NCBI GenBank assembly: GCA_963712745.1
Contig: CAVQJC010000010.1
Coordinates: 1-64,000 of the forward strand
Source of the DNA: an uncultured Chloroflexia bacterium
Lineage (GTDB): Bacteria > Chloroflexota > Limnocylindria > Limnocylindrales > CSP1-4
Direction: 5' to 3'
DNA length: 64,000 nt
Part shown: positions 37,461-55,313 of the stretch, piece after piece
Layout of the letters: the number at the start of each line of letters is the position of its first letter
Numbering within the stretch: position 1 is the stretch's first letter
Position numbers and translations under genes: made by a program
Notes under the pieces: model-generated
Told to the model about the DNA's origin: nothing
Databases searched by the model: none
Seen by the model: only the letters and a program-made list of their open reading frames with translations

Positions 37461-37575
37461 CTCGCGGTCAGACGCACCAGCGGGGCGACCAGTCTTGGTC
37501 GTCCCCGCACCTCGCCCAGGCTGGGCCGGCACACGATCGGCGGATGGTGACCAAGGGACGCCGCGGGTTGCCCGG

Positions 37576-37665
37576 AAATCGCCAGGCGTGCTCTGTCTGG
37601 TCGTCGCCGCCACGGCGTGGGGCCGACCGTCACTTGACCCGTTGAACGGGGCGGGGATGATGGGA
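37576..37665 (+). repeat. Cassette module copy a (shortened dyad + promoter)
   Basis: AAATCGCCAGG..CTCTGTCTGGT-CGTCGCCGCCACGGC...TTGACC(37634)-N16-GATGAT. Confidence 0.75.
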
Positions 37666-37745
37666 AGCAGCACAAGGGGGACCGAGATGATGTGCTAGTG
37701 GCCGGCTACCCCCGCTGGGTTGAGCGACCGCCGCCGTGCGCAGCA

Positions 37746-37830
37746 CGATGACTGGTCGTCGCCACCGTCACCGTGCCCGCCGGCGGTCCGTTCGTCACTT
37801 GACCCCCTGAAGGCCCCGCCGGACGATGGG
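37746..37830 (+). repeat. Cassette module copy b (right arm + promoter)
   Basis: CGATGACTGGT-CGTCGCCACCG...TTGACC(37799)-N17-GACGAT. Confidence 0.75.
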
Positions 37831-37851
37831 ACCCAACGGAGGTGATGGCTC

Positions 37852-39036
37852 ATGGAGCGGTCTCGCTCGGTCGGGCGGCTCGTCATCAGCACCATCGGAA
37901 TCCTGACCGGGGTGGCCTTCCTCGTCTCCCTGGCCTCGTGGGTGCCCCACACGGTCCTGGCACCGCTCGTCGGGCCCCAGCGGATCGAACGCGCCGAGGC
38001 CGGCTTCGCCATCGCCCTGCCGCTCGACTGGGAGCACGCCGACGCTGTCGATGCGGACCCCGACGAGTGGTGGGACCCCGACGAGGTCGTCTCGGTCGCG
38101 GCGCATCATCGGGAGGTCCTCGCCGATGGAGGCCTGCTGCTGGCCCGCAGCCGTTCACCGTTCTCGACCGACGGCTGCATCCTGTACGACTTCTCTGCTC
38201 GCGCCGCCGAACCACCTACCTGGACCACCCTCGCCCATGTCACGAGCGAGGTCCAGGCCTTCGAGGAGGACCCCGAGGTCATCGACGCCGAGGCCACCTT
38301 CCTCGAGTTGCCCGCGGGTCCTGCCCTGCGCGTCGACGTGCGCCGGTGGGATGGCTGGGACGGAAGCGACTTCTACCTCGCCGATGGGCTGCGCTGGTAT
38401 GAGCTGGACTGCGGAGCGGAGACCGCGCCCGACGACCGCTGGCTCTCCGTCGCCGAGACCTTCGAGTTCCTGCCCGTCGAGGGTATGTCCCGGCCCGTAG
38501 CCAGCCCCGCACCTCAGCGCGTCGAGCGCCCCGAGGCGGGCTTCGCGCTCATCCTGCCGTACGGCTGGCAGTACATGGACGCCGCGGAGGCCGATCCCCA
38601 CGAGTGGTGGGACGCCGAGGTCGTCGACGACGTGGAGGCATACCACGAGTCGCGCATCGCCGATGGCCTGCTCCTGACGGCACGCGCGTACCTGCCCACC
38701 GAGCCCGCGATGCAGCGATGCGACCTCGTCGACCTCACGGACCTGGCGACGATGTCCCCGGCCTGGGCCACGCTCGAGGATGCGGAGCAGGACTTCCGGG
38801 TCTGGTGGAGGGCCGATCCCGAACTGACCGCCTTCGAGGCCGACTACGTCGCTCTTCCCGCCGGACGCGTGCTGTCCATCGACAGCCACTGGCAGGATGA
38901 CCTGGTCGCCCGCGACTACGTGTACACCGACGGCGGGAGATGGTTTCAGCTTCCTTGCTCGACGTGGGGTACCCAGCCCGAGGATCGCTGGCTGGCGATC
39001 GCCGAGACGTTCGAGCTCCTGCCCGCCGACGAGTGA
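37852..39036 (+). CDS. Membrane-anchored protein with two tandem copies of an island-specific domain (PsbP/DUF1795-like by pattern)
   Basis: N-terminal TM; each half runs R.E.(P)EAGFA..LP..W ... P.DRWL.(V/I)AETFE.LP. Confidence 0.7.
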   Translation: MERSRSVGRLVISTIGILTGVAFLVSLASWVPHTVLAPLVGPQRIERAEAGFAIALPLDWEHADAVDADPDEWWDPDEVVSVAAHHREVLADGGLLLARSRSPFSTDGCILYDFSARAAEPPTWTTLAHVTSEVQAFEEDPEVIDAEATFLELPAGPALRVDVRRWDGWDGSDFYLADGLRWYELDCGAETAPDDRWLSVAETFEFLPVEGMSRPVASPAPQRVERPEAGFALILPYGWQYMDAAEADPHEWWDAEVVDDVEAYHESRIADGLLLTARAYLPTEPAMQRCDLVDLTDLATMSPAWATLEDAEQDFRVWWRADPELTAFEADYVALPAGRVLSIDSHWQDDLVARDYVYTDGGRWFQLPCSTWGTQPEDRWLAIAETFELLPADE

Positions 39037-39154
39037 GTCACCGCCAACAAGAAGGGTGGTGACCGACCGTCGCACACGATCGCGCAATCGTGTGGGTGCC
39101 ACGAGAGCTCGCTCCCGCGTCGAAGACCGCCATCTCCTGCGCCGCCGCGCGCGG

Positions 39155-39199
39155 GCCATTCGTCACTTGACCCGCTGAGGCCGGCGCGGAAGATGGGGA
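39155..39199 (+). repeat. Cassette module copy c (promoter half only)
   Basis: CCATTCGTCACTTGACC(39167)-N16-GAAGATGGGGA. Confidence 0.7.
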
Positions 39200-39240
39200 T
39201 ATCGGCAAGGTCGATAGGGTGATCGGGAGGTCCATCGCCG

Positions 39241-39522
39241 ATGGGAGCATTCGAAGCCCGCGAGGTCGCTCGAGTGGCGGTCGGTGTGGCTGCTGTGCTT
39301 GCCCAGACCGGGCTCGCGCTCCTCTACATCGGCTGGGCCATATTCGTGGTCCCGCCACCCGCGATCTTCGTTCTCGCGTGCCTTTGGCTCGCTCAGATGG
39401 TGGTCGTCATCTGGCTCGCCATCCGTGACGCGTGGCTCGCGCCGCTCGTACCGGTCGTGTCGTTCATCTCAGTGATGCTCATCCTCGAGTACGGGAAAGC
39501 GAACCTCGGCTGGGGGGCCTAG
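39241..39522 (+). CDS. Small 3-TM membrane protein
   Basis: Highly hydrophobic 93-aa ORF downstream of module c. Confidence 0.55.
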   Translation: MGAFEAREVARVAVGVAAVLAQTGLALLYIGWAIFVVPPPAIFVLACLWLAQMVVVIWLAIRDAWLAPLVPVVSFISVMLILEYGKANLGWGA

Positions 39523-39547
39523 CCGAGTCGCTGCCTGATTCTCAGCG

Positions 39548-39640
39548 AACCGCCATGAACAACGGGATTGGTCTGGTCGTCGCCGCCGTGGCTGCGGGCC
39601 GTCCGGCCCTTGGCCCACCGACCGGGACGCGGAGGATGAG
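39548..39640 (+). repeat. Cassette module copy d (full)
   Basis: AACCGCCATGA-ACAACGGG-ATTGGTCTGGT-CGTCGCCGCCGTGGC..GGGCCGTCCGGCCC-TTGGCC-N16-GAGGAT. Confidence 0.85.
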
Positions 39641-40133
39641 GCGTGAGTTGAGTCGCCACCCGATGTCGCGGGTCCGACTCACGCGCACGCTCCGGGCATG
39701 AGAGCCACGTCTCGGATCGAGGTACTCCTGTGGGACCGTCAGCGGCAACGAGGTCGCCTTGGGGCGACGCTGGTGCCATGGGCCGATCCTGTGCGTCCGC
39801 CGCAGAAGGATCGTTGAGATGGAAGGATCGGATCGCGGCGCCGGTACCCGGCGCCAGAGGCTCCTACGGTTGCTCGCCGGGGCCGTAGCCGGCTGCCCTG
39901 GACTGGAAGTGGTCGCCACGGATCGCGATGGTCGACGATCGGAGGATGCAGGGTCGGGGCACGTGCTGGGGCCGTCCTCGGATCGAGATGCCGAGAACCA
40001 GCAGCGCGACCTCGTCTCCGTCAGGGATCGGATCGGCCTTGGCTGCTCCCTATTCCCGGGATGCGGCGCGTTCGTGGGCTCGCTCGTGATGTCTGGGATG
40101 CTCATGGTCCTCGCCCGATCGCTGATCAGGTAG

Positions 40134-40859: not shown

Positions 40860-41101
40860 CGACTCGTGGCCTACAGCCGTCGGGCGAACCCCTGGGCCGA
40901 GGAGGTGTACCGCCGGGCACGTGCGCGCGGCAAGAGTCATCCCCATGCCGTGCGCATCCTCGCCCGGGCGTGGATCCACGTCATCTGGCGCTGCTGGCAG
41001 GACCGTGTCCCCTACGACCCGGCCCGCCACGGCGCCCTGCAGCGGGTGAACCTCGCCTCGACCGGGGTGGCGGCGTGATCAGGGGTTGACATAGGGCTAC
41101 T
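40860..41101 (+). mobile_element. IS110-family relic: C-terminal transposase fragment and right end
   Basis: SRRANPWA..VY.RARARGK.HPHAVRILARAW..VIWRCWQD..PYDP..H.AL, followed by GGGGTTGACATAGGGCTACT containing an outward -35 TTGACA. Confidence 0.75.
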
Positions 41102-41104
41102 CGG

Positions 41105-41158
41105 CGCGGTCCAAGGCGGCCAACGTACACGGGCCGCACGTCGATGCCTCCCGCTACG
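41105..41158. repeat. Second dispersed repeat (R2), copy 1
   Basis: CGCGGTCCAAGGCGGCCAACGTAC..GGGCCGC.....GCCTCCCGCTACG matches 43223-43275. Confidence 0.75.
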
Positions 41159-41781
41159 CATGACTCTCCCCCGCTGTCCATCGGTTCCGCGGGCACGCGC
41201 ACGAAACGCCACGAGTGGCGGACCCTTCGGGGCTCCCAAGGCCATTGCCGCTCGGGCGTGGCCTCGCCCGCTAGGCGCGATCGCGGGCTGCTCGGTCCAC
41301 GACCCAGGCGGCGAGTGAGGCCCCGACCAGGCTGTCCAGGAGCCCCAGACCGAGGTCGCCGAGCGTATCCCGATTGGCTGTCGCGGCTTCGGGTGAGGTC
41401 ACGTACTCGAGCAGCTCCCAGACGATCGCCGCCGCCGCGCCGAGGTCGTCCGCTCAAGCTCGGGATCGAGCGACCGCCGTGTCCGAGGGGCCCCGCGGGG
41501 CGTGTCCACCTCGACGGCTACATCCGCAACCGCTACAGCACGAACGAGCGGCCACGCTTCCGCTGCCTGCCTGACGACGGCAAGACGCCCTCACACGGAC
41601 CAGCCGAGGACAAGGACGAAGCGAGCTGACCCGCGGGCGACCTCTACCGCTCCGTCGCGGCCCCGTCCTGCTCGCGCATCGAAGCCCTTGACCGGGTTCC
41701 CGCCGACCGCGTAGACCCGCCCGTCCTCGTCTGTGGCTGCGTCCTACACCGCGAACTTGCCAATCGCCGTACCCGGACGTA

Positions 41782-42351
41782 TCAGAGCCGAAGGCGCATG
41801 GCGCATCGGCGGTCGGCTTGCTGCCCGGCCTGGACCTCCAGCTCGAGGATGCGGCGCAGTCGGGAGCTGCACGCTTCGGGGTCGATGACCTCGTAGCCGA
41901 GCGACGCGTAGAACGGTCCGTTCCAGGGCACATCGCTGAAGGTCGTGAGGGTCAGCGCACAGGCTCCGGCGTCACGGGCCTGTGCCTCGATGCGTGCCAT
42001 GAGCCGCGAGCCGATGCCCTGCTGCTGATACGGCTCGCCGACGGCGACCTCCCAGACGTGGACCTCGTGCTCGACGAGCTCGGCACAGATGAACCCCACC
42101 GGGGCGCCGGCGATATCGGCGACCCATGACCAGCCGGCTGCGGCGAAGCGGCGATGTTGGGCCTCATCGAGCACGTCATCGCCGACGATCCACGAGAGCT
42201 CGGGGATGGTCGCGAAGGAGCGGGCTGCAGACCGCTCGACAGCGGGAAGCTGTCGGACGTCGGCGTCCGTGGTGCGGCGGATGGTGATGCGTGTCGCGTC
42301 GATGACATCCTCCTCGTCCACCACGATGCGGCGGATGGGCCGAAGTGGCAA
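41782..42351 (-). CDS. GNAT family N-acetyltransferase
   Basis: L..VERSAA..F, HVWEVAV...YQQQGIG..L and LTLTTFSDVPWNGPFY..LGY motifs. Confidence 0.9.
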   Translation of the reverse strand: MPLRPIRRIVVDEEDVIDATRITIRRTTDADVRQLPAVERSAARSFATIPELSWIVGDDVLDEAQHRRFAAAGWSWVADIAGAPVGFICAELVEHEVHVWEVAVGEPYQQQGIGSRLMARIEAQARDAGACALTLTTFSDVPWNGPFYASLGYEVIDPEACSSRLRRILELEVQAGQQADRRCAMRLRL

Positions 42352-42455: not shown

Positions 42456-42500
42456 ACCGCTGAAAGAGAGCGGGTCATGTCTGGTCGTCGCCACCATGGC
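42456..42500 (+). repeat. Cassette module copy e (right arm + linker)
   Basis: AGAGCGGG-TCATGTCTGGT(42475)-CGTCGCCACCATGGC. Confidence 0.8.
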
Positions 42501-42539
42501 GATGCACGCGCTGCAGGCGGCCGAGGCGGCACGATGTCG

Positions 42540-43174
42540 CTATTCGGTGGGCCAGTCGGCGCTGTAGTTCAGCATGCCCTCGGACATGACCGGAACCGGA
42601 GTCCCCGGCTGAGACAGCGGTTCGGCTTCGAAGATGTAGCCCTCGTAGGTCAGTTCGTAGGGACCGTGGGCCAGCACCTCGGCCGTCCCGTGCAACAGTG
42701 CGTAGAGGCCCTCGTAGGCGCCCTCGCCTTCGAGCCTGTAGAAGCCGTACTGGTCCTCGCCGGAACCAGCCTTGACGAAGCGCCCACTCCCGTGCCAACT
42801 CCCGTCCTCGTCCTCCGGCAGGTGGTTGGTGGTGGTCGTGACCGCGCCCTTCTCCGTGTCCCAGTCATAGACCATCTGGTAGCGCGCCGTGAACCAGTGC
42901 CTGGCCGGAAGACGGGGGTCGCTCCACTCGACCGACTGCTCGATGAGGCCAACGGGCGCATCACACACTCTGGAGTAGCCACGCACGTCGGGACACGGGC
43001 TCGGCTCCGGTTCGTCCGCTGCCGACACACCGTCGTGAGCCCACTGCTCGACCACGGTCACGATGACGAAGGTACGGGTGCCGGTTCCTCGTCCTGCGCA
43101 GCCACAGTCACGGACAGACCACCGACCAGCATCAGGATGACCGCCCCAACCAGAGATAGTCGGAATTGACGCAT
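42540..43174 (-). CDS. Secreted hypothetical protein (frameshift near 43060), paralog of 53079-53342 and 54021-54569
   Basis: Signal peptide MRQFRLSLVGAV..VAAQD in one frame; mature part with SDPRL, GSW.G, L.GEGAYEGL.A and Y.GYIF in the next. Confidence 0.6.
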
Positions 43175-43222
43175 GACAAGCCTCCTCGGCTCGTACACGG
43201 GTCGGGTTCGCCAGTGGCTCAT

Positions 43223-43275
43223 CGCGGTCCAGGCGGCCAACGTACGTGGGCCGCGTCTCGCAGCCTCCCGCTACG
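43223..43275. repeat. Second dispersed repeat (R2), copy 2, upstream of the minus-strand gene starting at 43174
   Basis: CGCGGTCCAGGCGGCCAACGTACGTGGGCCGCG....GCCTCCCGCTACG. Confidence 0.75.
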
Positions 43276-43319
43276 TAGATCCTCCCGCGGGCGTCTACCA
43301 GCCCCGAGTGCTACTCCAG

Positions 43320-43424
43320 AATCGCCACGTATGACGGGTTTGGCCTGATCGTCGCCGCCAGGGCGACGTACGGCCCAGCGCCGTCCGGCCCTTGACCCGC
43401 AGGGCAGGGCGCGGAGGATGGGGA
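43320..43424 (+). repeat. Cassette module copy f (full)
   Basis: AATCGCCACGT-ATGACGGG-TTTGGCCTGAT-CGTCGCCGCCAGGGC...CCGTCCGGCCC-TTGACC(43392)-N16-GAGGAT. Confidence 0.85.
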
Positions 43425-43445
43425 CGCACGAGGGAGGACCCGAGA

Positions 43446-43620: not shown

Positions 43621-43649
43621 GACTGGCCGACTCGAGGGGTCCACCCATG

Positions 43650-43679
43650 AATCGCCATGAACAGCGGGTCATGTCTGGT
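43650..43679 (+). repeat. Cassette module copy g (30-bp dyad only)
   Basis: AATCGCCATGA-ACAGCGGG-TCATGTCTGGT; similarity stops at the end of the right arm. Confidence 0.85.
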
Positions 43680-43863: not shown

Positions 43864-44955
43864 GTGTCGACCTGGCTCGTCGAATCTGAGTATTCGCTCG
43901 CCTTCTTCGTCGTGCTCGTGCTCCTACTGCTGGCCCCGTGGCTTTCACGCCAGTACGCGAGATACGGCCGCCTGACGGGCTGGCCGGGACTACTGTCCGC
44001 CGGCACCGTGGCCTACGTCTGCGCCCTGGTGGCGTTCACGCTCTTCCCGGTGCCGCAGCTCAGCCCCGAGATCTGCGCAGACCAGGTCCCGGGCGCACAT
44101 CTTCGCCTCATGCCCCTGCAATCCTTCGCGGGCGCCTGGGCCGAGGTCGGCCGCATCGGCCCGGTCGCGTCGCTGACCTCGTTCGCTACGCTCCAGATCG
44201 TCTTCAACGTGGTGTTCTTCGTGCCGCTGGGGTTCCTGCTCGGTCACCGCTGGCGGAAGGGCCTGGTCACGACCTTCCTGATCGGCTTCGGGGTCTCGCT
44301 GCTCATCGAGTCGACGCAGGGCTCGGCTGTCTGGGGCCTCTTCCCGTGTCCATACCGGGTAGCGGAGGTTGACGACCTCATCACGAACACGACCGGCGCG
44401 GCTATCGGCTGGCTCGTGGCTTTCATCCTGCGCGATCGCCTGCCCGACCCCGATCCGAAGGCGGTCGCCGACGCTGCATCGCCCGGACTGATCCGGCGAG
44501 CCGGAGCAGTCCTCATCGACGTGCTCGTCATCTTCGAGATCGTCATCATCAGCGCGCTCATCGCGCTCGGCGTTCTGCTGGCCTTCGATGCCACCGGGGC
44601 CCAGGTCCTCGACGGCGCGGAGCTTGCCATCGATGCCGTCCAGCTGGTCGTCCTCGGGCTCCTCCTCGTGGTCGTTCCCAGCCGGCGGGCGGACCGCGCG
44701 ACGCCGGGGACAGCCGCCCTGCACCTTGCGGTGAGCGCGAGCGACGGCTCCCCGGCACGTCTCCATCAGCTGTTGATACGAGCCATGATCCGCTACCTGC
44801 CCCTACTGATCATCGGGCTGCCATGGGTGGCGTTCGGACTCCTGGACCTCCTGGTCGCCCTACTCCGCGCCGACCGCCGAACGTTGACGGACCTGGTCTC
44901 GAGTACCGTGACGGTGACCCGGACCACCCGGCAGACACGACGGCAGTCCGCGTAG
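43864..44955 (+). CDS. VanZ family membrane protein with C-terminal RDD domain
   Basis: FTLFP.P, Q..FNV.FFVPLG, SLLIE.TQ, CPYR...VDDLITNT.G, then RRA.A.LID and T.G. Confidence 0.88.
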   Translation: MSTWLVESEYSLAFFVVLVLLLLAPWLSRQYARYGRLTGWPGLLSAGTVAYVCALVAFTLFPVPQLSPEICADQVPGAHLRLMPLQSFAGAWAEVGRIGPVASLTSFATLQIVFNVVFFVPLGFLLGHRWRKGLVTTFLIGFGVSLLIESTQGSAVWGLFPCPYRVAEVDDLITNTTGAAIGWLVAFILRDRLPDPDPKAVADAASPGLIRRAGAVLIDVLVIFEIVIISALIALGVLLAFDATGAQVLDGAELAIDAVQLVVLGLLLVVVPSRRADRATPGTAALHLAVSASDGSPARLHQLLIRAMIRYLPLLIIGLPWVAFGLLDLLVALLRADRRTLTDLVSSTVTVTRTTRQTRRQSA

Positions 44956-45182: not shown

Positions 45183-45212
45183 GATCGCCATGCGTAGCGG
45201 GTTTGGTCTGGT
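45183..45212 (+). repeat. Cassette module copy h (30-bp dyad only)
   Basis: GATCGCCATGC-GTAGCGGG-TTTGGTCTGGT. Confidence 0.85.
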
Positions 45213-45240: not shown

Positions 45241-46285
45241 TCAATCAGCGGTCCGCCACAGCTCCCAGACGGGTGGGCGGCGAACGATGGACAGCTCCCT
45301 GATCTCGTCACCCCGCTGCAGCTTGAGGTCGAGGTTCTGCCCGATCGCTCCCTCTGGCACGTCCATGCTGGTCTCAACCGGCCGGCCGTCCGCCTCAAGG
45401 ATGATATCGCCGACCTGGACGCCGGCCGCATCCGCTGCGCCACCGGGGACGACACCGTTGATGAGGTTCGGAGTGATGGAGTAGTCCATCCGGATCCCGA
45501 GCCAGCCGAGCTGCGGACAGAGGTCTCCTGGCTCAGGCACCACGCCATCGAGCAGGAACTGCAGCAGTCGCTCGTCGAGGCACGGGTCGACGCCGGCCAA
45601 GGCGACTGCGTGACCGGACCCGTCCCAGGTCAGCAGGGTCGCGTTCGGCCCCAGCTCCTCGGCCAGGGCGACACTCCACGCATAGGGCGTGATGGCATCG
45701 TACGAGTTGCCCACCACCACGATCGGGGCCGAGCCGGTGTAGTCCACGGCCGGGATACCGGAGCCCGAGACAGGCCACAGATCGCAGGGCACACTCCAGA
45801 CCGGGCCGGCGTTGGGTGCCAGCGCGAAGGTCCGCTCCGCCTCCTCGAGCAGGTCCGCGGAGGTACCCGCGTACGGGCTCCCGTCCGCGCAGATGACAGC
45901 CTCGCGTGAAGCCGCACCTCCCGCAGGAGCCGCGAAGAAGCTGGTCACGTCCAGCAGCGAACCATCGCCATCGAGCGCCATGGCCAGCCCGGGGGCCACA
46001 TCGAGGATGACCCGGGGGAAGGTGTACAGCGCGTCGATGGCAGCCTCGAACCGTGGTTCCTCCAACGACCCGATGTCGCCGTGCCTGATGAGCTCGTCAC
46101 GGACCTTTGCGATGGCCGACAGGAGCCCGATGTCCGACACGGGACACGCCTCCCACGCGTCACACGAGCGATCAAGGCGCTGCAACTGGTCCTCGAAGGC
46201 CTCGGCTCGCCTGTCGCTGTTGACGAGTGCGGGGTCGTTGACGACCGCAGAGTCCAGGACCACGGTCCCTGCGCGCGGCGGCGAA
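45241..46285 (-). pseudogene. N-terminally truncated alpha/beta-hydrolase (TAP-like) with C-terminal PDZ domain
   Basis: Starts at (M)VLDS, just after where the GxSYG nucleophile region would be. Retains GNSYDAITPY and GSGH, plus PDZ-like GG.ADAAGVQVGD.I...DG. The 5' end abuts module i. Confidence 0.7.
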
Positions 46286-46289
46286 GGCT

Positions 46290-46740: not shown

Positions 46741-46765
46741 GTCGTATCCGCACTGGGGGACCGTC

Positions 46766-47524
46766 ATGCACCGGTACCTGGCTATCCTCACGCTCGGGCT
46801 CCTGACGGCGATTCTGTCGGGGTGCCAGCTGCTCGGGGCACTCCTGCCCGATGGCGCGGGCGGACTCCCCATGGCAGGGACCTGCGCCACCTATCAGGTG
46901 GTCGCTACCGAGGACCGGGCGGCCACCCCGGAGATCCTCGAGCAGACGCGAACGATCATCGCGAATCGCGTCAACGCCACCGGTGTGGCAGAGCCTGTCG
47001 TCGTCACCCAGGGCGAGGACCGCATCTCGGTCGACCTAACAGGGCTGGAGGCCGAGTCCGACTTCGGCAGCGTCAGGAGCCTCATCGGCACGACCGGTGT
47101 GCTCGAGTTCACCCCGGTCCCACCCGCTTGTGCATCCGAGGTCCTCCAAGGTGCTCGACTGCCTGCGTGCATGCTCGGCGTCGAACCGATCTTCGATGGC
47201 ACCGAAATCGCGGCAGCCCGCGTCGAACAGGACCAGACCACCAGCGAGATCGTGGTCAACCTCGAGCTCAAGGACAACGGCGCACGCCTCTTCGACGAGC
47301 ACGCCGCCGACCACTTCGGCGAGCAATTCGCCATCGTCCTCGACGGCATCGTCGAGTCGGCGCCCTCCATCAACGCCAGGCGCTTCGGTGGCCAGGCTCA
47401 GATAAGCGGCGACTTCACCATCGAGCAGGCCACCAACCTGATCGCGGTCATGAGGTACGGCCCCCTGCCCCTGGAGATCCGCGAGGTCGGCTTCGGCGCA
47501 TGTGAGCCGCTGGGCTCGTCCTGA
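46766..47524 (+). CDS. Lipoprotein consisting of a stand-alone SecD/SecDF P1 head domain
   Basis: Lipobox ILSGC; II.NRVNA.GVAEPVV..QG.DRI.V.L, G.LEF, AIVLDG.V.SAP.I, QISGDFT..A..L...R.G.LP; no SecD TM bundle. Confidence 0.8.
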   Translation: MHRYLAILTLGLLTAILSGCQLLGALLPDGAGGLPMAGTCATYQVVATEDRAATPEILEQTRTIIANRVNATGVAEPVVVTQGEDRISVDLTGLEAESDFGSVRSLIGTTGVLEFTPVPPACASEVLQGARLPACMLGVEPIFDGTEIAAARVEQDQTTSEIVVNLELKDNGARLFDEHAADHFGEQFAIVLDGIVESAPSINARRFGGQAQISGDFTIEQATNLIAVMRYGPLPLEIREVGFGACEPLGSS

Positions 47525-47635
47525 GCGGAGCGGGGCGTACGGGCCAGCCAGCCGGGGCCACGACACCGACGACCAGTCTGCGCAGGTCGTCGGGCTCACC
47601 TCTTCGACTCACGGACTGCGGCAAGGCACCGGCCA

Positions 47636-47736
47636 AACCGCCATGCATAGAGGGTGATGTCTGGTCGTCGCCGCCATGGCATCGCACGCTGCCGGGCCCT
47701 CCGGCCCTTGACCTATTGAACGGGACGGCGAGGATG
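47636..47736 (+). repeat. Cassette module copy k (full)
   Basis: AACCGCCATGC-ATAGAGGG-TGATGTCTGGT-CGTCGCCGCCATGGC...GCCGGGCCCTCCGGCCC-TTGACC(47708)-N16-GAGGAT. Confidence 0.9.
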
Positions 47737-47755
47737 TAGGCCAAGGGGGGTGCAC

Positions 47756-48439
47756 ATGCCCGACGGCCTGGTGCTGGTCATCCTGCTAGCGGTCGTCCTC
47801 TCGCTCGTGGGGACGGTGGGACGAGGACCGCGTCGGCAGGGCGTCGAGACCAAGACCGTGCGCTACAGCGCCCGGACCATCGACGATGCGCAGCGCCGCT
47901 ATTCTGCGGACGCCACCCTCTTCACGAGCACCGGCTGGGCCGTCCACTCGGTGGCCTGGGACGTGCAGGCGCAGCGGCCGACCCTGGTGGCGACCTATGC
48001 ACGGTTCGCTGGGGAGGACCCACGCCTGGAGCTGGCTGAGTGGTCGCTGCGATCGCTGGCCGGGTTCCGCAGGTACGCCGCGGCCATCCTGACTGCGATC
48101 GCCGTTCCCGTCATCGCGTCGGTCCTGCTCGAAGACACCGGCGTGTCCACCGGCGTCGGTGCCGTCGCGATGCTGTCGTTGCTCGTCCTCGGGGTCGTCT
48201 TCGGGGTGCGCTCGGAGCATCTGGCCAAGGGACCGGACAAGTGGCTCGATTGGTCGGTGGTCATCGTCGGAGCGATCCTCGGAGGCTTCGCTGTCCTCGT
48301 GTTCGTCGTGTTCGTCGCCATGTTCGGCAGCCTCTTTGGGCTGTACACGGCAGCCGCGGTGTTCGGCGCCTGGCTCGCGCTGCGCTCGGCCATCGCGGGA
48401 GCACGGATGCTCACCTCTCGGCGACAGCGGCCAGCCTGA
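47756..48439 (+). CDS. Hypothetical membrane protein
   Basis: N-terminal TM, soluble ADA...GW...S.AWD...LVATY segment, four C-terminal TMs; directly behind module k. Confidence 0.65.
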   Translation: MPDGLVLVILLAVVLSLVGTVGRGPRRQGVETKTVRYSARTIDDAQRRYSADATLFTSTGWAVHSVAWDVQAQRPTLVATYARFAGEDPRLELAEWSLRSLAGFRRYAAAILTAIAVPVIASVLLEDTGVSTGVGAVAMLSLLVLGVVFGVRSEHLAKGPDKWLDWSVVIVGAILGGFAVLVFVVFVAMFGSLFGLYTAAAVFGAWLALRSAIAGARMLTSRRQRPA

Positions 48440-48505: not shown

Positions 48506-48556
48506 ACGCCGCCGGGTCGTCCAGCCCTTCACCCGCGGAGCGGGGTGCGGAGGATC
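48506..48556 (+). repeat. Cassette module copy l (degenerate promoter half)
   Basis: ACGCCGCCGGGTCGTCCAGCCC-TTCACC-N16-GAGGAT. Confidence 0.75.
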
Positions 48557-48805
48557 GGGTGACAAGCCGGTTGGGGGGCGTAATGGCAAAGCGAGTGGGG
48601 CTGCTGGCTGGGTTGGTGGTGGTCTTGACGCTGGGGACTGGGGTGGTGGCGCAGGAGCCGATGCCAGAGCCGCCACCGTGGTTCGGCGGCCGTGCCGTCT
48701 CGCGGAGGTAGCGCCGTCGACTCGTCGTCCCGGTGGACATGGCGGTTGGCGGGGAGTAGCGTTCCGGCCTTGACATGCTGGGGGCTGGCATCCGGAGGTC
48801 TTGTT

Positions 48806-49828
48806 ATGGATCGAAAGAGGTCGCATCTTCGATCGGCTACCGTGGTGGCCCTGGCAATCTCACTGCCTGGAGCGGTCGTCGCGCAGGACATGCCAGCCTC
48901 GCCCGAGGGGCGGACATGGGAGCTTGCCGCGTACATGGACGATGCCGGCATGGCCACGGTGCCGGACGACCCGACCGCGACCCTCATGCTGGTTGACGGC
49001 GTCGCGTCGGGCAGCGCCGGCTGCAACCAGTTCTCCGGCAGCTACGAGCTCGACGGTGCATCGCTCACGTTCGCGCCGGAGTTGGCGCTGACGATGATGG
49101 CCTGCAAACCAGCGGCGGAGGAACTCGAGACTGCGTACATGGCCCTGCTGCCGACGACGAACTCGTGGCAGTCGACCGACGCGGGGCTCCAGCTCCTCGA
49201 TGCCGAAGGTGCCGTCATCCTCGAGTACACCGGGCAGGAGCCGGATCTCGCGACGGTAGTCGCGCTGCTGGAGGCGTTGCGCGCCGAGGTGAGCGAGCTG
49301 CGGTCACGCGTCGATGCGCTCGAGGCGACCGAAACCGCAGATGGCGGGTCCCAGGCAGGTGGCAGCGAGCGAGCCAGCAAGCCCACGGCTCCGAGGTCGC
49401 GAGGCAAGGTCAAGACCCGGTTTCCCGCCTGGATGCGCGATGGCGTCCCGCCGGACCGGATCGAGGACCTGAACCGTGAGGTCGTCCGCTGGCGCGACCG
49501 CGCCGACGACGAGGATGGCTTCCGCGTCTATGCCCGTCGTGGCTTCTGCGAGCTCAGGCCCGGCTCCGACCCGAACCAGCCAGTGGGCGAGGACGACTTC
49601 CGGCGCTCACGTACGAAGGCCGCGCTGATAGAAGAGCTGCCCGCCGACACGAACCGCTATCGGCCCGACCACGAGGCCATCGACGCGGCCCTGCCGGAGG
49701 TGCCGGAATCGCCCTACTCGAACGACCAGTTCTACGACCTGTACGTCGCCGCGTTCAACGACGCCGGTGAGACGAAGCCGGTGCGGGTCGCGTCGTTCTT
49801 CCTGACGCCGGAGTTCCGCTGCCCGTAG
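48806..49828 (+). CDS. Secreted META (HslJ-like) domain protein with coiled coil and C-terminal FN3-like region
   Basis: Signal peptide, W.L, G.AGCN.F.G.Y, TMMAC and E.AY...L; C-terminal W.D.ADDEDGFRVY...Y.V.AFN.AG. Confidence 0.8.
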   Translation: MDRKRSHLRSATVVALAISLPGAVVAQDMPASPEGRTWELAAYMDDAGMATVPDDPTATLMLVDGVASGSAGCNQFSGSYELDGASLTFAPELALTMMACKPAAEELETAYMALLPTTNSWQSTDAGLQLLDAEGAVILEYTGQEPDLATVVALLEALRAEVSELRSRVDALEATETADGGSQAGGSERASKPTAPRSRGKVKTRFPAWMRDGVPPDRIEDLNREVVRWRDRADDEDGFRVYARRGFCELRPGSDPNQPVGEDDFRRSRTKAALIEELPADTNRYRPDHEAIDAALPEVPESPYSNDQFYDLYVAAFNDAGETKPVRVASFFLTPEFRCP

Positions 49829-49890: not shown

Positions 49891-50045
49891 AAATCGACCG
49901 CGCGGCCAAGCATCGCTGACCGCCTCCTTCGATGTATCCCCGACCTCGACGTCGCGGGATTGTCGGCGGTCCGATCACGCCCGATCCCCGCATCCCATGG
50001 CCAAGCCAACCCTACTGCCCGGACACATCCTCCGGAGTCATCCGA

Positions 50046-50150
50046 AATCGCCATGCATAGCGGGTTTGGCCTGGTCGTCGCCACCATGGCAAGGCGCGCC
50101 GCCGGGCCGTCCGGCCCTTGACCCGCTGAGCGGGGGGCGGAGGATGGGGC
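50046..50150 (+). repeat. Cassette module copy m (full, closest to consensus)
   Basis: AATCGCCATGC-ATAGCGGG-TTTGGCCTGGT-CGTCGCCACCATGGCAAGGCGCGCCGCCGGGCCGTCCGGCCC-TTGACC(50118)-N16-GAGGAT. Confidence 0.92.
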
Positions 50151-50151
50151 C

Positions 50152-50838
50152 ATGGCTTGGTTCAGACCGGCTCGCAATAGGGACCATCCCGGAGATCCGC
50201 CTCCCAAGTGGGCACCCATGGGCAGAGCTGGCCGCGTGGTCCTCGTGATCACCGTCATCGTGGGGGTGGTCATCGCCCTCCTGATCATGTCGACCAGGAC
50301 GGCTGGCGCAGCCGACGGCACGGACGGACCCGCCGCCACCGCGGAGTCAGTGGCCCCGCCATCGTTCGGCCAGCGGGTCGAGGTACCCGAGGCAGGTTTC
50401 GCGGTTACGTTCCCGCTCGATTGGGAGGTCAGCATCGACACCAGCGATGTGCCCGGCGAAGGGGGAACCTTCGCGGTGGTCTCCGGTCGGGAAGCCGCGA
50501 GCGATGTCACCTGCGAGGTATACCTGTACGGCCCCTGCACCGGGTCCTCGTTCGGCGACTGCGCTGCGGCCCTCGACGAGGTAGCCGCACGCATGGTCGC
50601 CTACTTCGAGGGCGACGAGTCGTCCTCCCGGACCGATGAGTCCGCGGCGATGGACCTCCCGGCGGGCTACGCCGTCCGGGTCGATACCGAGTGGATCGAC
50701 GAGGGCGTCTTCGGCTCCCTGTACCTGCTGACCGACGGGAAGGTCCACGACTCCCTGCGATGCCGTGGCTCGGAGCGTCCTGAGGACCGCTGGCTCTCCA
50801 TCGCCGAGACCTTCGCCTTCCTGCCCGCCGAGGAGTAG
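50152..50838 (+). CDS. Membrane-anchored protein with a single EAGFA..FP..W / DRWLSIAETF domain (start may be 50218)
   Basis: TM, then QRVEVPEAGFAVTFPLDW ... PEDRWLSIAETFAFLPAEE; paralog of 37852-39036. Confidence 0.7.
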   Translation: MAWFRPARNRDHPGDPPPKWAPMGRAGRVVLVITVIVGVVIALLIMSTRTAGAADGTDGPAATAESVAPPSFGQRVEVPEAGFAVTFPLDWEVSIDTSDVPGEGGTFAVVSGREAASDVTCEVYLYGPCTGSSFGDCAAALDEVAARMVAYFEGDESSSRTDESAAMDLPAGYAVRVDTEWIDEGVFGSLYLLTDGKVHDSLRCRGSERPEDRWLSIAETFAFLPAEE

Positions 50839-50875
50839 GCGGGCGAGGGCCAGTGCAGGGTCCGCTGGCTTCAGG

Positions 50876-50976
50876 GATCGCCATGAGTAGCGGGCTATCT
50901 CAAGTCGTCGCCGCCATGGCGATGGACGACGCCGGGCCGTCCGGCCCTTGACCCGCTGACCGGGGCGGGGAGGATA
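50876..50976 (+). repeat. Cassette module copy n (full)
   Basis: GATCGCCATGA-GTAGCGGG-CTATCTCAAGT-CGTCGCCGCCATGGC...GCCGGGCCGTCCGGCCC-TTGACC(50948)-N16-GAGGAT. Confidence 0.92.
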
Positions 50977-51009
50977 GAGGGGAGGGGCCACGAAGAAGCC
51001 TGGCCTGGG

Positions 51010-51549
51010 GTGTCTGACATGGGGACCGCGATTCGACGACCGATGATCACCATCCTGATGGCCTGCCTCTGCATTGTCCCTGTCTCCGCCACCGCGGCGC
51101 AGTCACCATCACCGACCATCGGGGCGCCCGTCCTGGGCACAGGGACCGACGCGCTCGCCTGGCTCACCTCCATGGGCATCGTCGGCGTCGAAGCTGTCCC
51201 GACGGCGGACGGACAGTTGCGCTGGGAGGCGACCCTCTCCATGGGCGAGGCGGGAGCCGATATCACCTTGGAGTTCGTCGGATCCCCCGAGGCGCTGACG
51301 AGCGCGTCGCTGACGACGAGCACGGACAGCGACTCCTACGCGGGCTCCTTGATCGTCCTATGGGCCCAGCAGTTCCATCCCGAGAGCCTCGATTTCATCG
51401 TCAATGCGCTCCTGCGGGGGGCCTTCCTCGAAGGGATGGACGCGGAAGCCGATTTGCCGGACAGCACTGTCCACGTGACGACGGCCATGGACCCCGATGC
51501 CCCTCTCGGCGAGGAGACCATGTCGATCACCATCACGATCAAGGACTGA
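51010..51549 (+). CDS. Secreted hypothetical protein
   Basis: Signal peptide ending ATAAQS, acidic mature domain; directly behind module n. Confidence 0.65.
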   Translation: MSDMGTAIRRPMITILMACLCIVPVSATAAQSPSPTIGAPVLGTGTDALAWLTSMGIVGVEAVPTADGQLRWEATLSMGEAGADITLEFVGSPEALTSASLTTSTDSDSYAGSLIVLWAQQFHPESLDFIVNALLRGAFLEGMDAEADLPDSTVHVTTAMDPDAPLGEETMSITITIKD

Positions 51550-52348: not shown

Positions 52349-52669
52349 CACGGCTCCCTTCGACCGCCTCGAGCGGTCCCGTGTCCTGATCGAGGAACCG
52401 GGCCAAGCTGGGCGCTCAACAGGTCCTGCAAGATGCTGCTTCGAGTCTCGGCAGCCGGGCCCAAGGTGCCAAGGGCCAAGAGGACCGCGGCGGGTGGGCC
52501 AGCGGGTCAGAGAGTGTGCGGCCCTGGTGGCGGAGGGCGTCGGCATGTGGCAGCTCGTCTGCGAGCGGCGCACGAGCTGGTCCTGTGGACACCGTCCCAG
52601 AGTGGAGACCCGCGCCGACCGGTCCGCGGCAACGTCGACAACCACCAGGCATGGCACCCACTCGATCCG

Positions 52670-52714
52670 GAATCGCATGAATAGCGGGCGGTATCTGGTC
52701 ATCGCCACTATGGC
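52670..52714 (+). repeat. Cassette module copy o (dyad + linker)
   Basis: GAATCGCATGA-ATAGCGGG-CGGTATCTGGT-CATCGCCACTATGGC. Confidence 0.8.
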
Positions 52715-53015
52715 CGCGATCGCCGCCGGGCACTTCGCCGCCGATGCTGTCGTGGCCGCGCGACTGGGCTACACCGCGACGTCGCGATCCTGGGACGGCG
52801 AGAAGCTGACGGTGGTGTACCAGCTGCAGCCGCCAGGCGAGAATGAAGCACCCGTTCCACCGCCGGCAGGACGCATGGCAGCCAATGCCCTGGCCAATCA
52901 AGCACGCGCGGAAGCCAACGCGCAGGCCAATCAAGCACGCGTGGCAGGTCGCGATCCAGTCGGTCTACCGCCTCCACCGCTAGTAGCGCCCCGGTCGGCC
53001 GATCAGCCTGAGTGA
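52715..53015 (+). pseudogene. 5'-truncated fragment related to the soluble segment of 47756-48439
   Basis: HFAADAVVAARLGYTATSRSWDGEKLTVVY resembles RYSADATLFTSTGWAVHSVAWD....LVATY; includes a 33-nt internal tandem repeat. Confidence 0.5.
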
Positions 53016-53078
53016 CCGAGCGAGCCGTGCCGCTGAGCGTTCTTCGCGAGCCTGATCGCCAAGGAGTAGTCGCAGCGC

Positions 53079-53342
53079 TCAGGAGGCGATCTCGGACGTC
53101 GGGTCATATCCGCCTGACCAGGCAGTGATGGCGACACCACCTTCATGCCTTGAGTCGGAGAATAGCTCGACGACCCGCGGCTCACCACAGCCCAGCTCAT
53201 GTGACTGGTCGGGCTCGCAGGGTCCGAACTCAAGCCGCCCAGTGAACTCCGGTCCCAGTCCGGCCGGATCAGCTACGACGTCAGCCGTCGAGACCACAAG
53301 CACGGTCATGGCCGCGATCGGCGCGAGGAGCCTCTTCAACAC
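53079..53342 (-). pseudogene. Truncated secreted paralog of 54021-54569
   Basis: Signal peptide, EFTGRLEFGPC...C..P...FSD.R.EG.VAITAW, then early stop. Confidence 0.65.
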
Positions 53343-53922
53343 TCACTCCTCTCACCCATTCCGCCGTCACCAGAGAGGGTGCGCCGAGGGCCTGATGTCA
53401 TCGAGCGCGGGGCGCGAAAGATGGCTCGATCTGGAGACATCGGCCACGGGCCGACCAGCGTCGAGACGGAACGGGTGATCGCTACCGCATCCCGTGCCAG
53501 GCTCGACCAGCCGATACCGCGACGAGCACGAGCCCGAACGTAGCGACGAAAGCGAGCACGAGCATGCTCGAACAGCAGCACTCGTGCCTGACCGACCGCT
53601 TGAGCTGGTCCCATCCCCAGGCCAGGGTGCCGACTTCCGGCTCTTCGGTGCGCTCCGGCCCCGGATCGCCGGAGACATGCTCGCGATCGCTCCTGTCCTC
53701 GAACATGGGCTCGACATTGTGGCTCCGTGCTCGGTGGGACAAGGGCCCTTGGTCACCCAGCAGCATGCGGAGACCGCGCCCTGGCGGCCATCGGTGGCGA
53801 GCCGTGCATCATCGCCTCCCGCTGGGGGCTATCGAACACCTAGGCCGGACCGGCATCAAGTGGCAGAGGTCACCGGCCGCGTCCGTTCAGGGTCGGTCCG
53901 GGCCCGTCGATAGCCTCCATTA

Positions 53923-53992
53923 CGTCGCCTTGATAGCGGATGCTACCCGGCCGTCGCCGCCATCTCCAGCACGCCCCCCTGGGCCCGTCCGC
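53923..53992 (+). repeat. Cassette module copy q (degenerate)
   Basis: CGTCGCCTTGA-TAGCGGA-TGCTACCCGGC-CGTCGCCGCCAT...GGGCCCGTCCG. Confidence 0.55.
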
Positions 53993-54020
53993 GCGATCGG
54001 CAGCTGACAGCGACGCGGGG

Positions 54021-54569
54021 CTACCAGTCCAGCTCCGCGCGGTCGCCCGTCCTGATGACTCCCGCGAAATCGGGCACGCCCGCCTGCATGCTGCCCGGAA
54101 CGATACGGCCATGGAAGTCGAAGACAGATCCCGTGACCGTCACCTCGGCGACCGCAGAGAGGCCCTCGTTCGCCCCGGTGCCGACGAGAACGCTGGTGTA
54201 CTGCGTCGGAGCCCCGTCACGGTGCTGCAGGCGTGGCGACGCCACCTCCACCCAGCCGTCAGCCGAGTCGCCGATGAGCCACGAGCCGAGCCACAGCACA
54301 GATGTCTCCCCGATCTCTCGAGACCACCCGGTGATGGCGACCTCCCCATCGAGCCGCGCGTCACTGAAGGCCTCCAGGACCGCTGGCGTATCACAGGTGA
54401 GGCCATTCGGGTCGACACCCTCGCACATCGGGCCGAATACGAGCCGGCCGGTGAACTCGCCCAGGACGCACCTCTCGTCGACGCATTCCTCGTCTGACTG
54501 TCCGGCGACAGCGACGGCCAAGCCCAGCAGCAGGGCCACCACGATGAGTGAGACATGAAGCGTGCGCAT
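54021..54569 (-). CDS. Secreted hypothetical protein (SD.RL / L.G.GA.EGL family)
   Basis: GGAGG RBS, signal peptide, EFTGRLVFGPMC, FSDARLDG and LVGTGANEGLSA. Confidence 0.7.
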   Translation of the reverse strand: MRTLHVSLIVVALLLGLAVAVAGQSDEECVDERCVLGEFTGRLVFGPMCEGVDPNGLTCDTPAVLEAFSDARLDGEVAITGWSREIGETSVLWLGSWLIGDSADGWVEVASPRLQHRDGAPTQYTSVLVGTGANEGLSAVAEVTVTGSVFDFHGRIVPGSMQAGVPDFAGVIRTGDRAELDW

Positions 54570-54694
54570 AGCGACCTCCCATTCTCCGACCATGAAGCGC
54601 GCCGGGCGCAGGCACCGGCAAGAGCCGTTGGGACTGCCACGCGGGCGCTCCGTCGATGAGACCATCGAGTTCCTGACCGCCGAGGTTCAGGGTG

Positions 54695-54780
54695 AGCAGC
54701 CATGGAAACACGGTGATGCCCGGTCGGCATCACCGTAGCCGCACCACGCCCCGGGTCGTCCGGCGCTTGACCTGTTGAGC
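54695..54780 (+). repeat. Cassette module copy p (dyad to -35, truncated)
   Basis: AGCAGCCATGG-AAACACGG-TGATGCCCGGT-CGGCATCACCGTAGC...CCGGGTCGTCCGGCGC-TTGACC(54767). Confidence 0.75.
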
Positions 54781-55313
54781 TATCACGCCCACGACCGGCG
54801 CGAGGAGGATGGGTGGTATCCAACCGAACATGCCCTCCGGCTGGCCCCGGCCGGCCACGGACGGGAAGGTCGTCCGTTCGTGCTCGTCGGGATCGAGGCG
54901 CTTGAGCCAAGGCAGGATCACGCCAAGCGCGACAACCGACACGACGAACTCGATGCCGATCAGATCCGTCGCACTGGGGCGATCGTCTTCCTGCGAATAC
55001 CCTTGCGTCGAGAGCCGATCGAACGCTGCGGGGCCAAGGGGGCTCGCTCGTCACGAACAGGAGTGGGATGATGCCGCGGACACCTTGGCGCAACGCGCCG
55101 AGGAGCGATACACGGGGGCGCGGCGGAGGGTGGCCATGCCCATCACCATCTTGGAGCGCGATCGGGGGGCGCGATCTTCACCATCACCCGGGCGTCTTGC
55201 GTGCCGGTCTGGTCCGGGTCATCAAGACGGGCGCCATGCCGCCGATGTGGCCGATGCTGCGCGAACCGACAGCACGCAGCCAGCCGTGATGAGTCGCTTG
55301 GTGAGCTCGACCG

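Follow-up and report, generated by a model that had tools for sequence, protein, structure and literature searches.

Introduction

Several described bacterial systems arrange genes around short repeated sequences. Repetitive extragenic palindromic sequences (REPs) and bacterial interspersed mosaic elements (BIMEs) are short extragenic repeats, specific to a lineage, that occupy intergenic positions and can give rise to rearrangements. REPs form palindromes, are scattered over the whole genome in either orientation and go together with REP-associated tyrosine transposases (RAYTs). The vsa and vsp loci of Mycoplasma hold rows of paralogous surface-protein genes, each behind a conserved non-coding block that is a tyrosine recombinase site; inversion takes place between oppositely oriented sites, a single expression site is switched and the recombinase is encoded in the locus. 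Integrase-less islet accretion, as in arrays at tRNA or tmRNA ends and in tycheposon-type islands, involves a repeated att-like sequence that separates cargo behind a conserved gene, the first copy being different. Integrative mobile elements exploiting Xer recombination (IMEX) have repeats of 28 bp that are similar to dif and located at the one dif locus of the chromosome. Integrons have been reported in Chloroflexi, and integron cassettes are said to contain promoters only rarely (Cury et al. 2016, PMC4889954). Here we analyse a stretch of 64,000 nucleotides (nt), hereafter the window, from the genome of an uncultured Chloroflexia bacterium (assembly GCA_963712745.1, contig CAVQJC010000010.1), in which a diverged module of ~100 nt recurs between 37.5 and 54.8 kb in a gene array.

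An initial annotation, made from the letters of the window, had described this region as an integron-like array of self-promoted cassettes, put together by site-specific recombination acting in trans; our analysis supports this interpretation in part. We show that the module consists of a 46-nt element, A, and a promoter-like element, B, that a variant of A, termed A0, stands at the start of arrays, and that related genomes differ in the units between A copies. We read A and A0 as recombination joints of an integron-like cassette system built from non-integron parts, and put the probability of this reading at about 0.45. The repeat arrays themselves are a real, undescribed and lineage-specific feature; among the titles and abstracts listed by a literature search, none describes the A element.

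Materials and methods

The source genome (G000) is a metagenome-assembled genome (MAG) with 20 contigs and 4.2 Mb in total; its completeness is 84.55% and its contamination 5.03%. The window is C10:1-64000. Other genomes compared, among them G005, G008, G014, G001 and G006, are named by code where needed. Module copies were collected with an nhmmer profile seeded with eight window copies, run over the whole genome and then iterated; copies with E<1e-3 were considered solid. Presence of the A part in species of the genus was called at E<=1e-5. Additionally, find_repeats was run on 36-56 kb, which gave families with 8-13 co-oriented copies of the motif of the initial annotation. Recombinases of G000 were searched with PF00589, PF01797, PF00239 and TIGR02249, and the neighbourhoods of integrase genes were inspected.

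Results and discussion

The module and its parts

The iterated profile gives 15 matches in the window at E<=6e-4, all on the + strand between 37,576 and 54,819 (starts in Table 1; at the copy at 42456 the profile match itself starts at 42467). Seventeen sites on this strand had been noted initially, and the remaining two are relics: 45183 keeps the left 29 nt only and 53923 is degenerate. The consensus given at the time was correct. In the rest of the window, core regions included, the profile searches had no match. The 21-nt core GTCTGGTCGTCGCCGCCATGG occurs eight times with at most three mismatches, always on the + strand and within 37.6-50.9 kb; its chance expectation is 0.02, and eight occurrences were reached in 0 of 100 shuffles. 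The module is also present beyond this locus, in two further arrays of G000 on contigs C17 and C7. Successive A copies are separated by a median of 1084 nt (interquartile range 772-1600, 121 spacings from all genomes studied), which is about one gene.

What had been taken for a single module of ~100 nt is recurrent but consists of two separable elements, as 57 matches in G000 comprise 22 copies with A only, 20 with A and B, and 15 with B only. According to the alignment of all copies, A is a sharply bounded, non-palindromic element of 46 nt in which box X, AATCGCC-ATGAATAGCGGGTTAT, is on the left and box Y, GTCTGGTCGTCGCCGCCATGGC, on the right. B reads GGGCCGTCCGGCCC-TTGACC-N16-GAGGAT and follows A after a linker of 2-14 nt; B-only copies have unrelated DNA upstream and stand partly outside arrays. 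All 32 aligned copies keep the string TTGACC-N16-GAGGAT, and B is followed 6-45 nt downstream by a Shine-Dalgarno sequence and a start codon. From its sequence B looks like a promoter element with a weak -10: five of six positions of the -35 hexamer match, the spacer has 16 nt, and GAGGAT agrees with TATAAT at only three of six positions. A strict promoter scan accepted one site, the B behind A0 at the array start, against 1.4 expected by chance.

Two more blocks accompany A. Motif C, GCAGCCGAGGCGGCGCGATGGGG, typically stands behind A-only copies and is followed by the stop codon of an opposite-strand gene. Many A copies have on their left a conserved block that, on the opposite strand, is a cyclic di-GMP-II-GCG (c-di-GMP-II-GCG) riboswitch (RF03170), preceded by a conserved GGACGCCCGCGAGAGAATC box; the window aptamer matches the Rfam model over its full length (positions 1-85) with 57 bits, the gathering score being 47.9. 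Among 164 A copies, 78 are followed by B and 62 have before them an opposite-strand unit with a riboswitch leader, and left and right neighbour types combine nearly freely. At G0C2 and G0C8 an inverted C motif is joined to B exactly at the palindrome GCCATGGC, the end of the Y box.

The initial annotation had seen a dyad in the module. This was not upheld for A: single-stranded DNA (ssDNA) folding of four A copies, both strands, gave structures no better than those of shuffles (z -0.71 to +1.38), and the apparent dyad GCCATG...CATGGC shows no covariation; if anything, its boxes resemble a direct repeat, TCGCC..ATGG. Real palindromes are confined to B and are short. A is neither a hairpin nor a structured RNA, and we hold it very improbable that the module acts as a structured cis-regulatory or small RNA, be it a leader shared by downstream genes or a 3'-untranslated element. 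Such a role would agree with the GC-rich nature of the short palindromes in B, with the GGATG..CATCC hairpin found behind the -10-like box in many copies, and with RNA-library contigs that cross two A copies (42429-42618 and 45075-45249), although contigs of this kind are no proof of transcription. RNAalifold, however, predicted seven pairs with zero compensatory changes in 32 A+B copies from several genomes (energy -4.56, covariation term -0.05 kcal/mol), an Rfam scan found no family at gathering score over A or B, and neighbouring genes are transcribed in either sense with respect to A.

Conserved loci with exchangeable content

The interval from the hisA-like gene to the EF-G-like gene holds an array in both G000 and G005. 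Gene order here, which the initial annotation had singled out for comparison, is collinear in the flanks (80-85% DNA identity) and different in the interior, where the 23.9 kb of G000 and the 18.9 kb of G005 have one 426-nt stretch and the repeats in common. A 28-kb array of G150 also abuts a hisA-sized gene. The array on C7 of G000 and its counterpart in G014 share a flank, after which they differ by multi-unit blocks with edges inside A copies. The clearest exchange is seen between G148 and G013, 93.7-94.7% identical over flanks of 1.1 kb (1123 nt) and 3.4 kb (3385 nt): the unit from A0 to the next A differs, and the swapped units are a C motif with a family-1 gene and riboswitch versus B with a two-domain family-2 gene (families described below). 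Gains, losses and replacements between species thus map to A, and the proposed cassette-like array with units bounded by the repeat is supported.

A0 has the Y box of A and a left part that is different and shorter; as a search pattern it reads TCGCC-AGGCGTACGAC-GTCTGGTCGTCGCCGCCATGG. Wherever the left edge of an array is resolved (12 arrays), A0 is the first copy: three in G000, two each in G014 and G013, and one each in G005, G148, G150, G151 and G152. Eleven of 13 non-redundant A0 copies have no co-oriented module upstream in the available sequence, and ten of these eleven have one 166-2100 nt downstream; the other two are accounted for by a nearest upstream module 212 kb off and by a place inside a 99%-identical copy of another array's start. 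Two further array starts carry slightly diverged forms of A0. Usually a core gene on the same strand ends 4-80 nt before A0. At least four different core loci are represented, and hisA, a carbamoyltransferase gene and a methyltransferase-side flank are among the neighbours that precede A0. A metagenome scan for A0 gave ten short contigs, and on one metagenome contig an array begins behind an ORF (open reading frame) that adjoins enolase, PGK and GAPDH. By analogy, the position of A0 at array starts most resembles the distinction between attI and attC, and is least well explained by plain tandem duplication.

Three arrays contain 38 of the 42 A-containing copies of G000: C10 37.5-54.8 kb (+), C17 158-176 kb (-) and C7 67-77 kb (+, to the contig end). 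Module matches lie on one strand within each (15/15 +, 17/17 - and 12/12 +, respectively). The whole-genome profile scan suggested by the initial annotation accordingly did not find the A part scattered upstream of core genes. The whole module was detected in 8 of 18 congeners and 0 of 12 sister-family genomes. The A part is present in 15 of 49 species of the genus, with 1 to 19 or more copies per genome, and in none of the other genera searched; 120 genomes drawn from the family gave only chance-level A matches of 19-38 nt. Matches to the exact core, multicopy per public record, all come from MAGs titled uncultured Chloroflexia, Chloroflexota or Candidatus Limnocylindrales.

Such a patchy, lineage-restricted spread and such variation in copy number would also fit a selfish short repeat of the REP, miniature inverted-repeat transposable element (MITE) or Correia type, possibly mobilised by an insertion sequence (IS) enzyme, with arrays as tolerated insertion places. 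The seven IS110-family matches of G000 can be listed in favour of this. We nevertheless consider it improbable: A lacks terminal inverted repeats and a stable hairpin, no RAYT/Y1 transposase was found in G000, copies are strictly co-oriented and concentrated in three places, the first copy is special, and relatives differ by whole units and not by A alone.

The IS110-family matches (PF02371) include C4:200601-202065 and C20:26135-27599, which are 1.47-kb copies with 99.9% identity; others lie at C20:451.6k, C8:94.9k, C4:297.2k and C1:109.8k. Two are situated 2-3 kb from the solo A copies C4:198555 and C1:113036, outside arrays, and this proximity may reflect only shared accessory regions.

Cargo genes and riboswitch units

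Array ORFs cluster mainly into two paralogous families, neither of which has a Pfam match. Family 1 (27 members in the first data set) is riboswitch-led and has the C-terminus ..PAE, and family 2 (21 members) has B as predicted promoter and the C-terminus ..FLPAEE. Their orientation to A is antisense in 46 of 50 family-1 cases and sense in 34 of 34 family-2 cases. ESM Atlas provided leads only: PsbP/LpqN-like for family 2, and Chloroflexota clusters without a name for family 1. About half of all units lie on the strand opposite to A and carry their own riboswitch leader. Unrelated units in the window encode GNAT, VanZ/RDD, TAP-like/PDZ (a fragment), SecD-P1-like and META proteins and several orphans. 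Many window cargo proteins have hydrophobic N-termini, as judged by eye.

RF03170 has 47 matches in G000, 32 of them over the gathering score, most before family-1 secreted-protein genes. The count is 12-47 in five A-bearing genomes, 7 in a sixth (the fragmented G006), 0-10 in other genomes searched and 0 in 12 sister-family genomes, so that expansion of the riboswitch is linked to the presence of A. Published passages on c-di-GMP-II-GCG list the model only. An expansion of this size of an orphan riboswitch variant before one secreted-protein family, 47 matches in 4.2 Mb, is unusual and gives a biological context for finding its ligand.

The arrays could alternatively stem from birth and death of two paralogous secreted-protein families, with no dedicated recombinase: units would arise by tandem duplication and their coding parts would change rapidly, selection conserving the non-coding control blocks. 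A would then be a protein-binding control element (a shared upstream site, an insulator or a terminator), and RecA-type or short-homology recombination between conserved blocks would generate the variation. We regard this as the main alternative, somewhat less probable than recombination joints. It would account for the two families being the largest clusters of array ORFs and for arrays of the G151:C8 type, which are near-perfect tandem iterations of A, C, gene and riboswitch. It would equally suit the finding that 116 of 164 A copies immediately precede B or the riboswitch promoter block, and the A-to-B spacing, which falls into two classes ~10 nt apart and is compatible with helical phasing. 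The same conserved A0 heading 12 of 12 arrays at different core loci is harder to accommodate, and unrelated genes are bounded by A too.

The relation of A to transcription also speaks against a control element. When ORFs are called on both sides (n=77), the four orientation contexts are about equal: 21 antisense/antisense (a/a), 20 divergent, 18 tandem-sense and 18 convergent, and well-conserved copies stand between two 3' ends, e.g. C17:166535 and C17:169188. A is independent of local transcription and tied to no promoter. At 15 places in G000, B forms a unit that lacks A. Because A is alongside only 14 of the 54 riboswitch-leader copies of G000, it is not needed for expression of the riboswitch unit.

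Conservation of A points the same way. A copies have a mean pairwise identity of 79% and are as conserved as the adjoining riboswitch, neighbouring paralogues having ~30% amino acid (aa) identity. Identity within genomes (0.786, 1039 pairs) is equal to that between genomes (0.793, 4421 pairs), so there is no genome-specific homogenisation, which frequent gene conversion would be expected to produce; the conservation of A therefore does not come from intragenomic gene conversion. Moreover, 46 nt at ~79% identity are a poor substrate for homologous recombination.

Recombination at A: proposed mechanism and evidence

In the mechanism that we propose, A would be the joint between exchangeable one-gene units that are stacked in hypervariable arrays at conserved loci. 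A recombinase encoded in trans would recognise A and A0 as double-stranded sites, and units would be exchanged, deleted and inserted by a crossover within or beside the Y box. The result would be integron-like, A0 corresponding to attI and A to attC, although the sites would differ, the cassettes would be expressed on their own and the putative enzyme would be unlinked. Carried further, a subclade of Chloroflexota would have an integron-analogous system of unrelated parts, with a duplex 46-nt A, a founding A0 behind core genes, a putative unlinked enzyme that could be a co-opted Xer-like or IS-derived one, and self-promoted or riboswitch-led cassettes; this system would have driven the expansion of riboswitch-controlled secreted genes to up to 47 copies per genome. 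In this complete form we hold the proposal rather unlikely.

A number of observations weigh against A and A0 being recombination joints. The first concern the enzyme. The best match of G000 to TIGR02249 (IntI) has 84.9 bits, with a cut-off of 265, and PF01797 (Y1/RAYT transposase) has no match; it should be kept in mind that G000 is 84.55% complete. Its four PF00589 matches (two Xer-like, one of the prophage integrase type and one fragmentary) lie far from any array. In 487 kb of array loci of relatives neither a tyrosine nor a serine recombinase was found, tblastn of the four G000 recombinases versus these 487,313 nt gave no match, and the two longest flanks of the metagenome A0 contigs contain no recombinase. 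PF00589 counts across 49 congeners show no relation to A. That no recombinase is local to the array had been stated from the start, and the failure to find one agrees with birth and death of paralogues.

Homology endpoints are likewise of little help to the recombination-joint reading. Nine junctions end in A, seven at model positions 41-62 (the right end) and two at the left edge; others lie at the B 3' end, and one at a CCGAGG microhomology, unrelated to A, that is shared by the family-2 3' end and the C motif. Every conserved block (A, B and C) thus has junctions at its edges, as expected under birth and death, and these junctions fit homologous recombination equally well because high-scoring segment pairs run to the edge of any conserved block. 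Mapping of homology endpoints was consequently rejected as a discriminator, a pile-up at conserved-block edges being predicted by both models.

Further points of this kind are the absence of coupling between A variants and neighbour type on either side (199 and 226 of 500 shuffles reach the observed statistic), and the dominance of two paralogous families in the cargo, as tandem duplication would predict. Near-identical units recur in separate arrays within a genome: G014 has one of 688 nt (99.6% identity), and C7 and C17 of G000 share stretches of 1215 nt (99%) and 691 nt (98%). Two of these recent duplications, the 688-nt and the 1215-nt one, span more than one A-to-A unit. Twenty-four public read runs were found, with a best share of 0.52 of sampled words. 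Four runs provided short Logan contigs with a depth of ~2-6, and these contained no usable excision, circle or structural-variant junction, joint sides being 20-49 nt long and within repeats; the short-sided joints probably stem from paralogous copies or other strains. Finally, every genome compared is a MAG, and the near-identical C7 and C17 segments could be strain variants.

Some observations on these genomes are recorded here. The segments C20:653968-656772 and C20:5758-6476 of G000 are 97-98.5% identical to flank and interior of the array on C12 of G014 (L011), in contrast to orthologous core genes of the two genomes, which have only ~64-77% protein identity; this could be due to recent transfer or to mixing of strains or bins in the MAG. 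On C12 of G014, arrays of opposite orientation at ~16-23 kb (-) and 40-44 kb (+) lie ~20 kb apart and share the 688-nt unit at 99.6%; if they recombined, the core segment that separates them would be inverted. A phage-type integrase gene beside a large primase/helicase-like ORF at C12:6671-10210 of G000 probably belongs to an integrated element unrelated to the arrays. Long tandem repeats at C6:254051-261367 of G000, with offsets of ~600 nt and ~204 nt and >99% identity, probably represent a highly repetitive gene.

If A and A0 are true recombination sites, capture and shuffling of cassettes are not unique to integrons: they would have evolved independently, with self-regulated cassettes, in a soil and sediment lineage of Chloroflexota, and a new class of recombinase could be sought. 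On a conservative reading, the arrays are still a clean natural example of short conserved joints that organise hypervariable islands at fixed positions.

Other features of the window

All features are listed in Table 1. The only tRNA of the window lies at 7.8 kb. In the repeat-free distal part of the variable interval, the DUF3160 gene has homologues at other loci in the congeners G005, G008, G014 and G001. A direct repeat of 73 nt (85% identity) occurs at 39629-39701 and 40155-40227 and brackets poorly coding ORFs (39759-41078). One of these, a 70-aa ORF at 40866-41078, has a tail pattern reminiscent of the C-termini of IS110-type transposases, a likeness supported by neither Pfam nor BLASTP versus the IS110 proteins of G000. 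Coding remnants of family 2, with the motifs RVE.PEAGF and SIAETFEFLP, are found between intact units at 46504-46554, 51603-51657 and 54631-54685; older units therefore decay inside the array.

Table 1. Features of the array and its flanks in the 64,000-nt window.
Feature	Position	Strand	Evidence and remarks
hisA-like gene, conserved left flank	35080..35808	+	85.8% aa identity to gene at G005 array start; collinear DNA homology stops at 35797
Metallo-beta-lactamase-fold gene between hisA and A0	36303..37460	+	PF00753; absent at this place in G005; partial homologue in 1/5 congeners searched
A0 (TCGCCAGGCGT..GTCTGGTCGTCGCCGCCACGG), then B-type element (GTCACTTGACC-N16-GATGAT)	37576..37669	+	nhmmer E 8e-16; A0 pattern; first co-oriented copy, none upstream
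Partial A (right half) + B, upstream of 37852 gene	37746..37833	+	nhmmer model positions 24-110, E 2.7e-11
Family-2 gene with a tandem domain pair, in sense orientation to A; C-terminus ..ETFELLPADE	37852..39036	+	In 21-member paralogue cluster; no Pfam family
B-only element upstream of 93-aa membrane-like ORF (39241-39522)	39152..39201	+	nhmmer model positions 62-111, E 9e-7; translation
A+B module, short A-B linker	39546..39643	+	nhmmer E 1.5e-20
Riboswitch-leader relic	41100..41187	-	Leader profile E 1.5e-11; find_repeats D10; below Rfam gathering score
GNAT acetyltransferase gene, unrelated to families 1 and 2	41782..42351	-	PF00583
A copy, left part diverged, then C motif	42456..42509	+	nhmmer model positions 16-58, E 1.3e-7; sequence
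Family-1 gene, antisense to A, riboswitch-led	42540..43061	-	In 27-member cluster; 43% aa identity to C7:69922-71118
c-di-GMP-II-GCG riboswitch aptamer, 5' leader of 42540-43061	43191..43276	-	RF03170, 57 bits
A+B module, riboswitch unit on left (divergent)	43318..43424	+	nhmmer E 1.8e-22
Truncated A (left 32 nt)	43648..43679	+	nhmmer model positions 3-34, E 5.7e-4
VanZ-like/RDD membrane protein gene	43864..44955	+	PF04892, PF06271
Truncated A (left half) between two convergent genes	45183..45212	+	find_repeats D8 reference copy; nhmmer E 0.055
TAP-like hydrolase fragment with PDZ domain, N-terminally truncated	45241..46263	-	PF08386, C-terminal part of profile only; PDZ
A copy with decayed B remnant	46289..46361	+	nhmmer model positions 4-77, E 4e-13
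Right half of A + B, upstream of 46766 gene	46663..46747	+	nhmmer model positions 19-113, E 2.9e-13
SecD/F P1-domain lipoprotein-like gene; only cargo common with syntenic G005 array	46766..47524	+	PF22599, PF21760; 88% DNA identity over 426 nt
A+B module	47634..47741	+	nhmmer E 4.6e-27
Membrane-like protein gene, no Pfam family	47750..48439	+	Translation
B-only element	48506..48562	+	nhmmer model positions 55-111, E 7e-8
META-domain protein gene	48692..49828	+	PF03724
A+B module; -10-like GAGGAT 6 nt before ATG of 50152	50044..50152	+	nhmmer E 3e-28; sequence
Family-2 gene, C-terminus ..ETFAFLPAEE	50152..50838	+	Cluster membership; 77% aa identity to G005:C4 gene behind B-only element
A+B module	50875..50979	+	nhmmer E 3.3e-25
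Secreted-looking protein gene, no Pfam family	51010..51549	+	Translation
A-only copy	52669..52737	+	nhmmer model positions 3-72, E 2.9e-10
Riboswitch-leader relic	53778..53823	-	Leader profile E 3.4e-4; find_repeats D10
Degenerate A copy	53923..53963	+	nhmmer E 5.2 only; 77% identity to find_repeats D2 reference copy
Antisense secreted-looking gene, no Pfam family	54021..54665	-	Translation
Diverged A + B, insertion in promoter spacer; last array copy	54697..54819	+	nhmmer E 6.9e-14; alignment
Repeat-free distal part of variable interval: DUF1801, gene of no named family, DUF3160	55314..58894		Pfam
EF-G-like GTPase gene, conserved right flank	59710..61875	-	Pfam EFG domains; 92.6% aa identity to G005; collinear homology restarts at 59710

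Comparison with known systems

In contrast to REPs and BIMEs, A is non-palindromic, strictly co-oriented and concentrated in few arrays, and no Y1 transposase was found. With the vsa and vsp loci of Mycoplasma the arrays share rows of paralogous secreted-protein genes and a conserved non-coding block before each, but the A sites are co-oriented, each unit has its own promoter-like element or riboswitch, and no recombinase is linked. Islet accretion is similar in having a repeat between cargo blocks behind a conserved gene and a distinct first copy; it differs in that A derives from neither a flanking gene nor a tRNA, the same A0 stands behind different core genes, and units are of ~1 kb with a single gene. 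Xer/dif-based arrays (IMEX) were ruled out because a genome has at least three array loci, which follow different core genes; A was also judged dissimilar to dif, by comparison with the dif consensus. The c-di-GMP-II-GCG riboswitch, being the opposite-strand block left of many A copies, is cargo and not joint.

The initial annotation had set the array apart from both CRISPR and attC arrays, and we concur on either count. By the criteria in PMC4889954 the array is not an integron by any defining component. Where attC sites are imperfect palindromes that fold as ssDNA, A is an asymmetric 46-nt duplex sequence, in which sequence inspection found no R and L boxes (RYYYAAC/GTTRRRY), and the genome as assembled has no IntI over the cut-off. 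Units are led by a riboswitch or a predicted promoter of their own, about half are antisense, two paralogous families dominate, and each genome can have three or more arrays at different core loci, recombination at A being our proposal. A classical integron remnant, i.e. a cluster of attC sites lacking an integron-integrase (CALIN) whose integrase is elsewhere or lost, would explain the co-oriented single-gene units, the repeat after each and the distinct first site, but is effectively refuted by these differences.

The likeness to sedentary chromosomal integrons and CALINs (PMC4889954) is nonetheless extensive. It comprises long co-oriented rows of ~1-kb single-gene units with a site-like repeat after each, a distinct first site by a conserved flank, content that differs between relatives at a fixed locus, cargo of mostly secreted and membrane proteins without an assigned role, and a fixed orientation of cassettes to the site; CALINs, moreover, have no integrase beside the array either. 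What the locus shares with integrons is a co-oriented single-ORF array behind an attI-like first site, and the analogy is one of architecture only.

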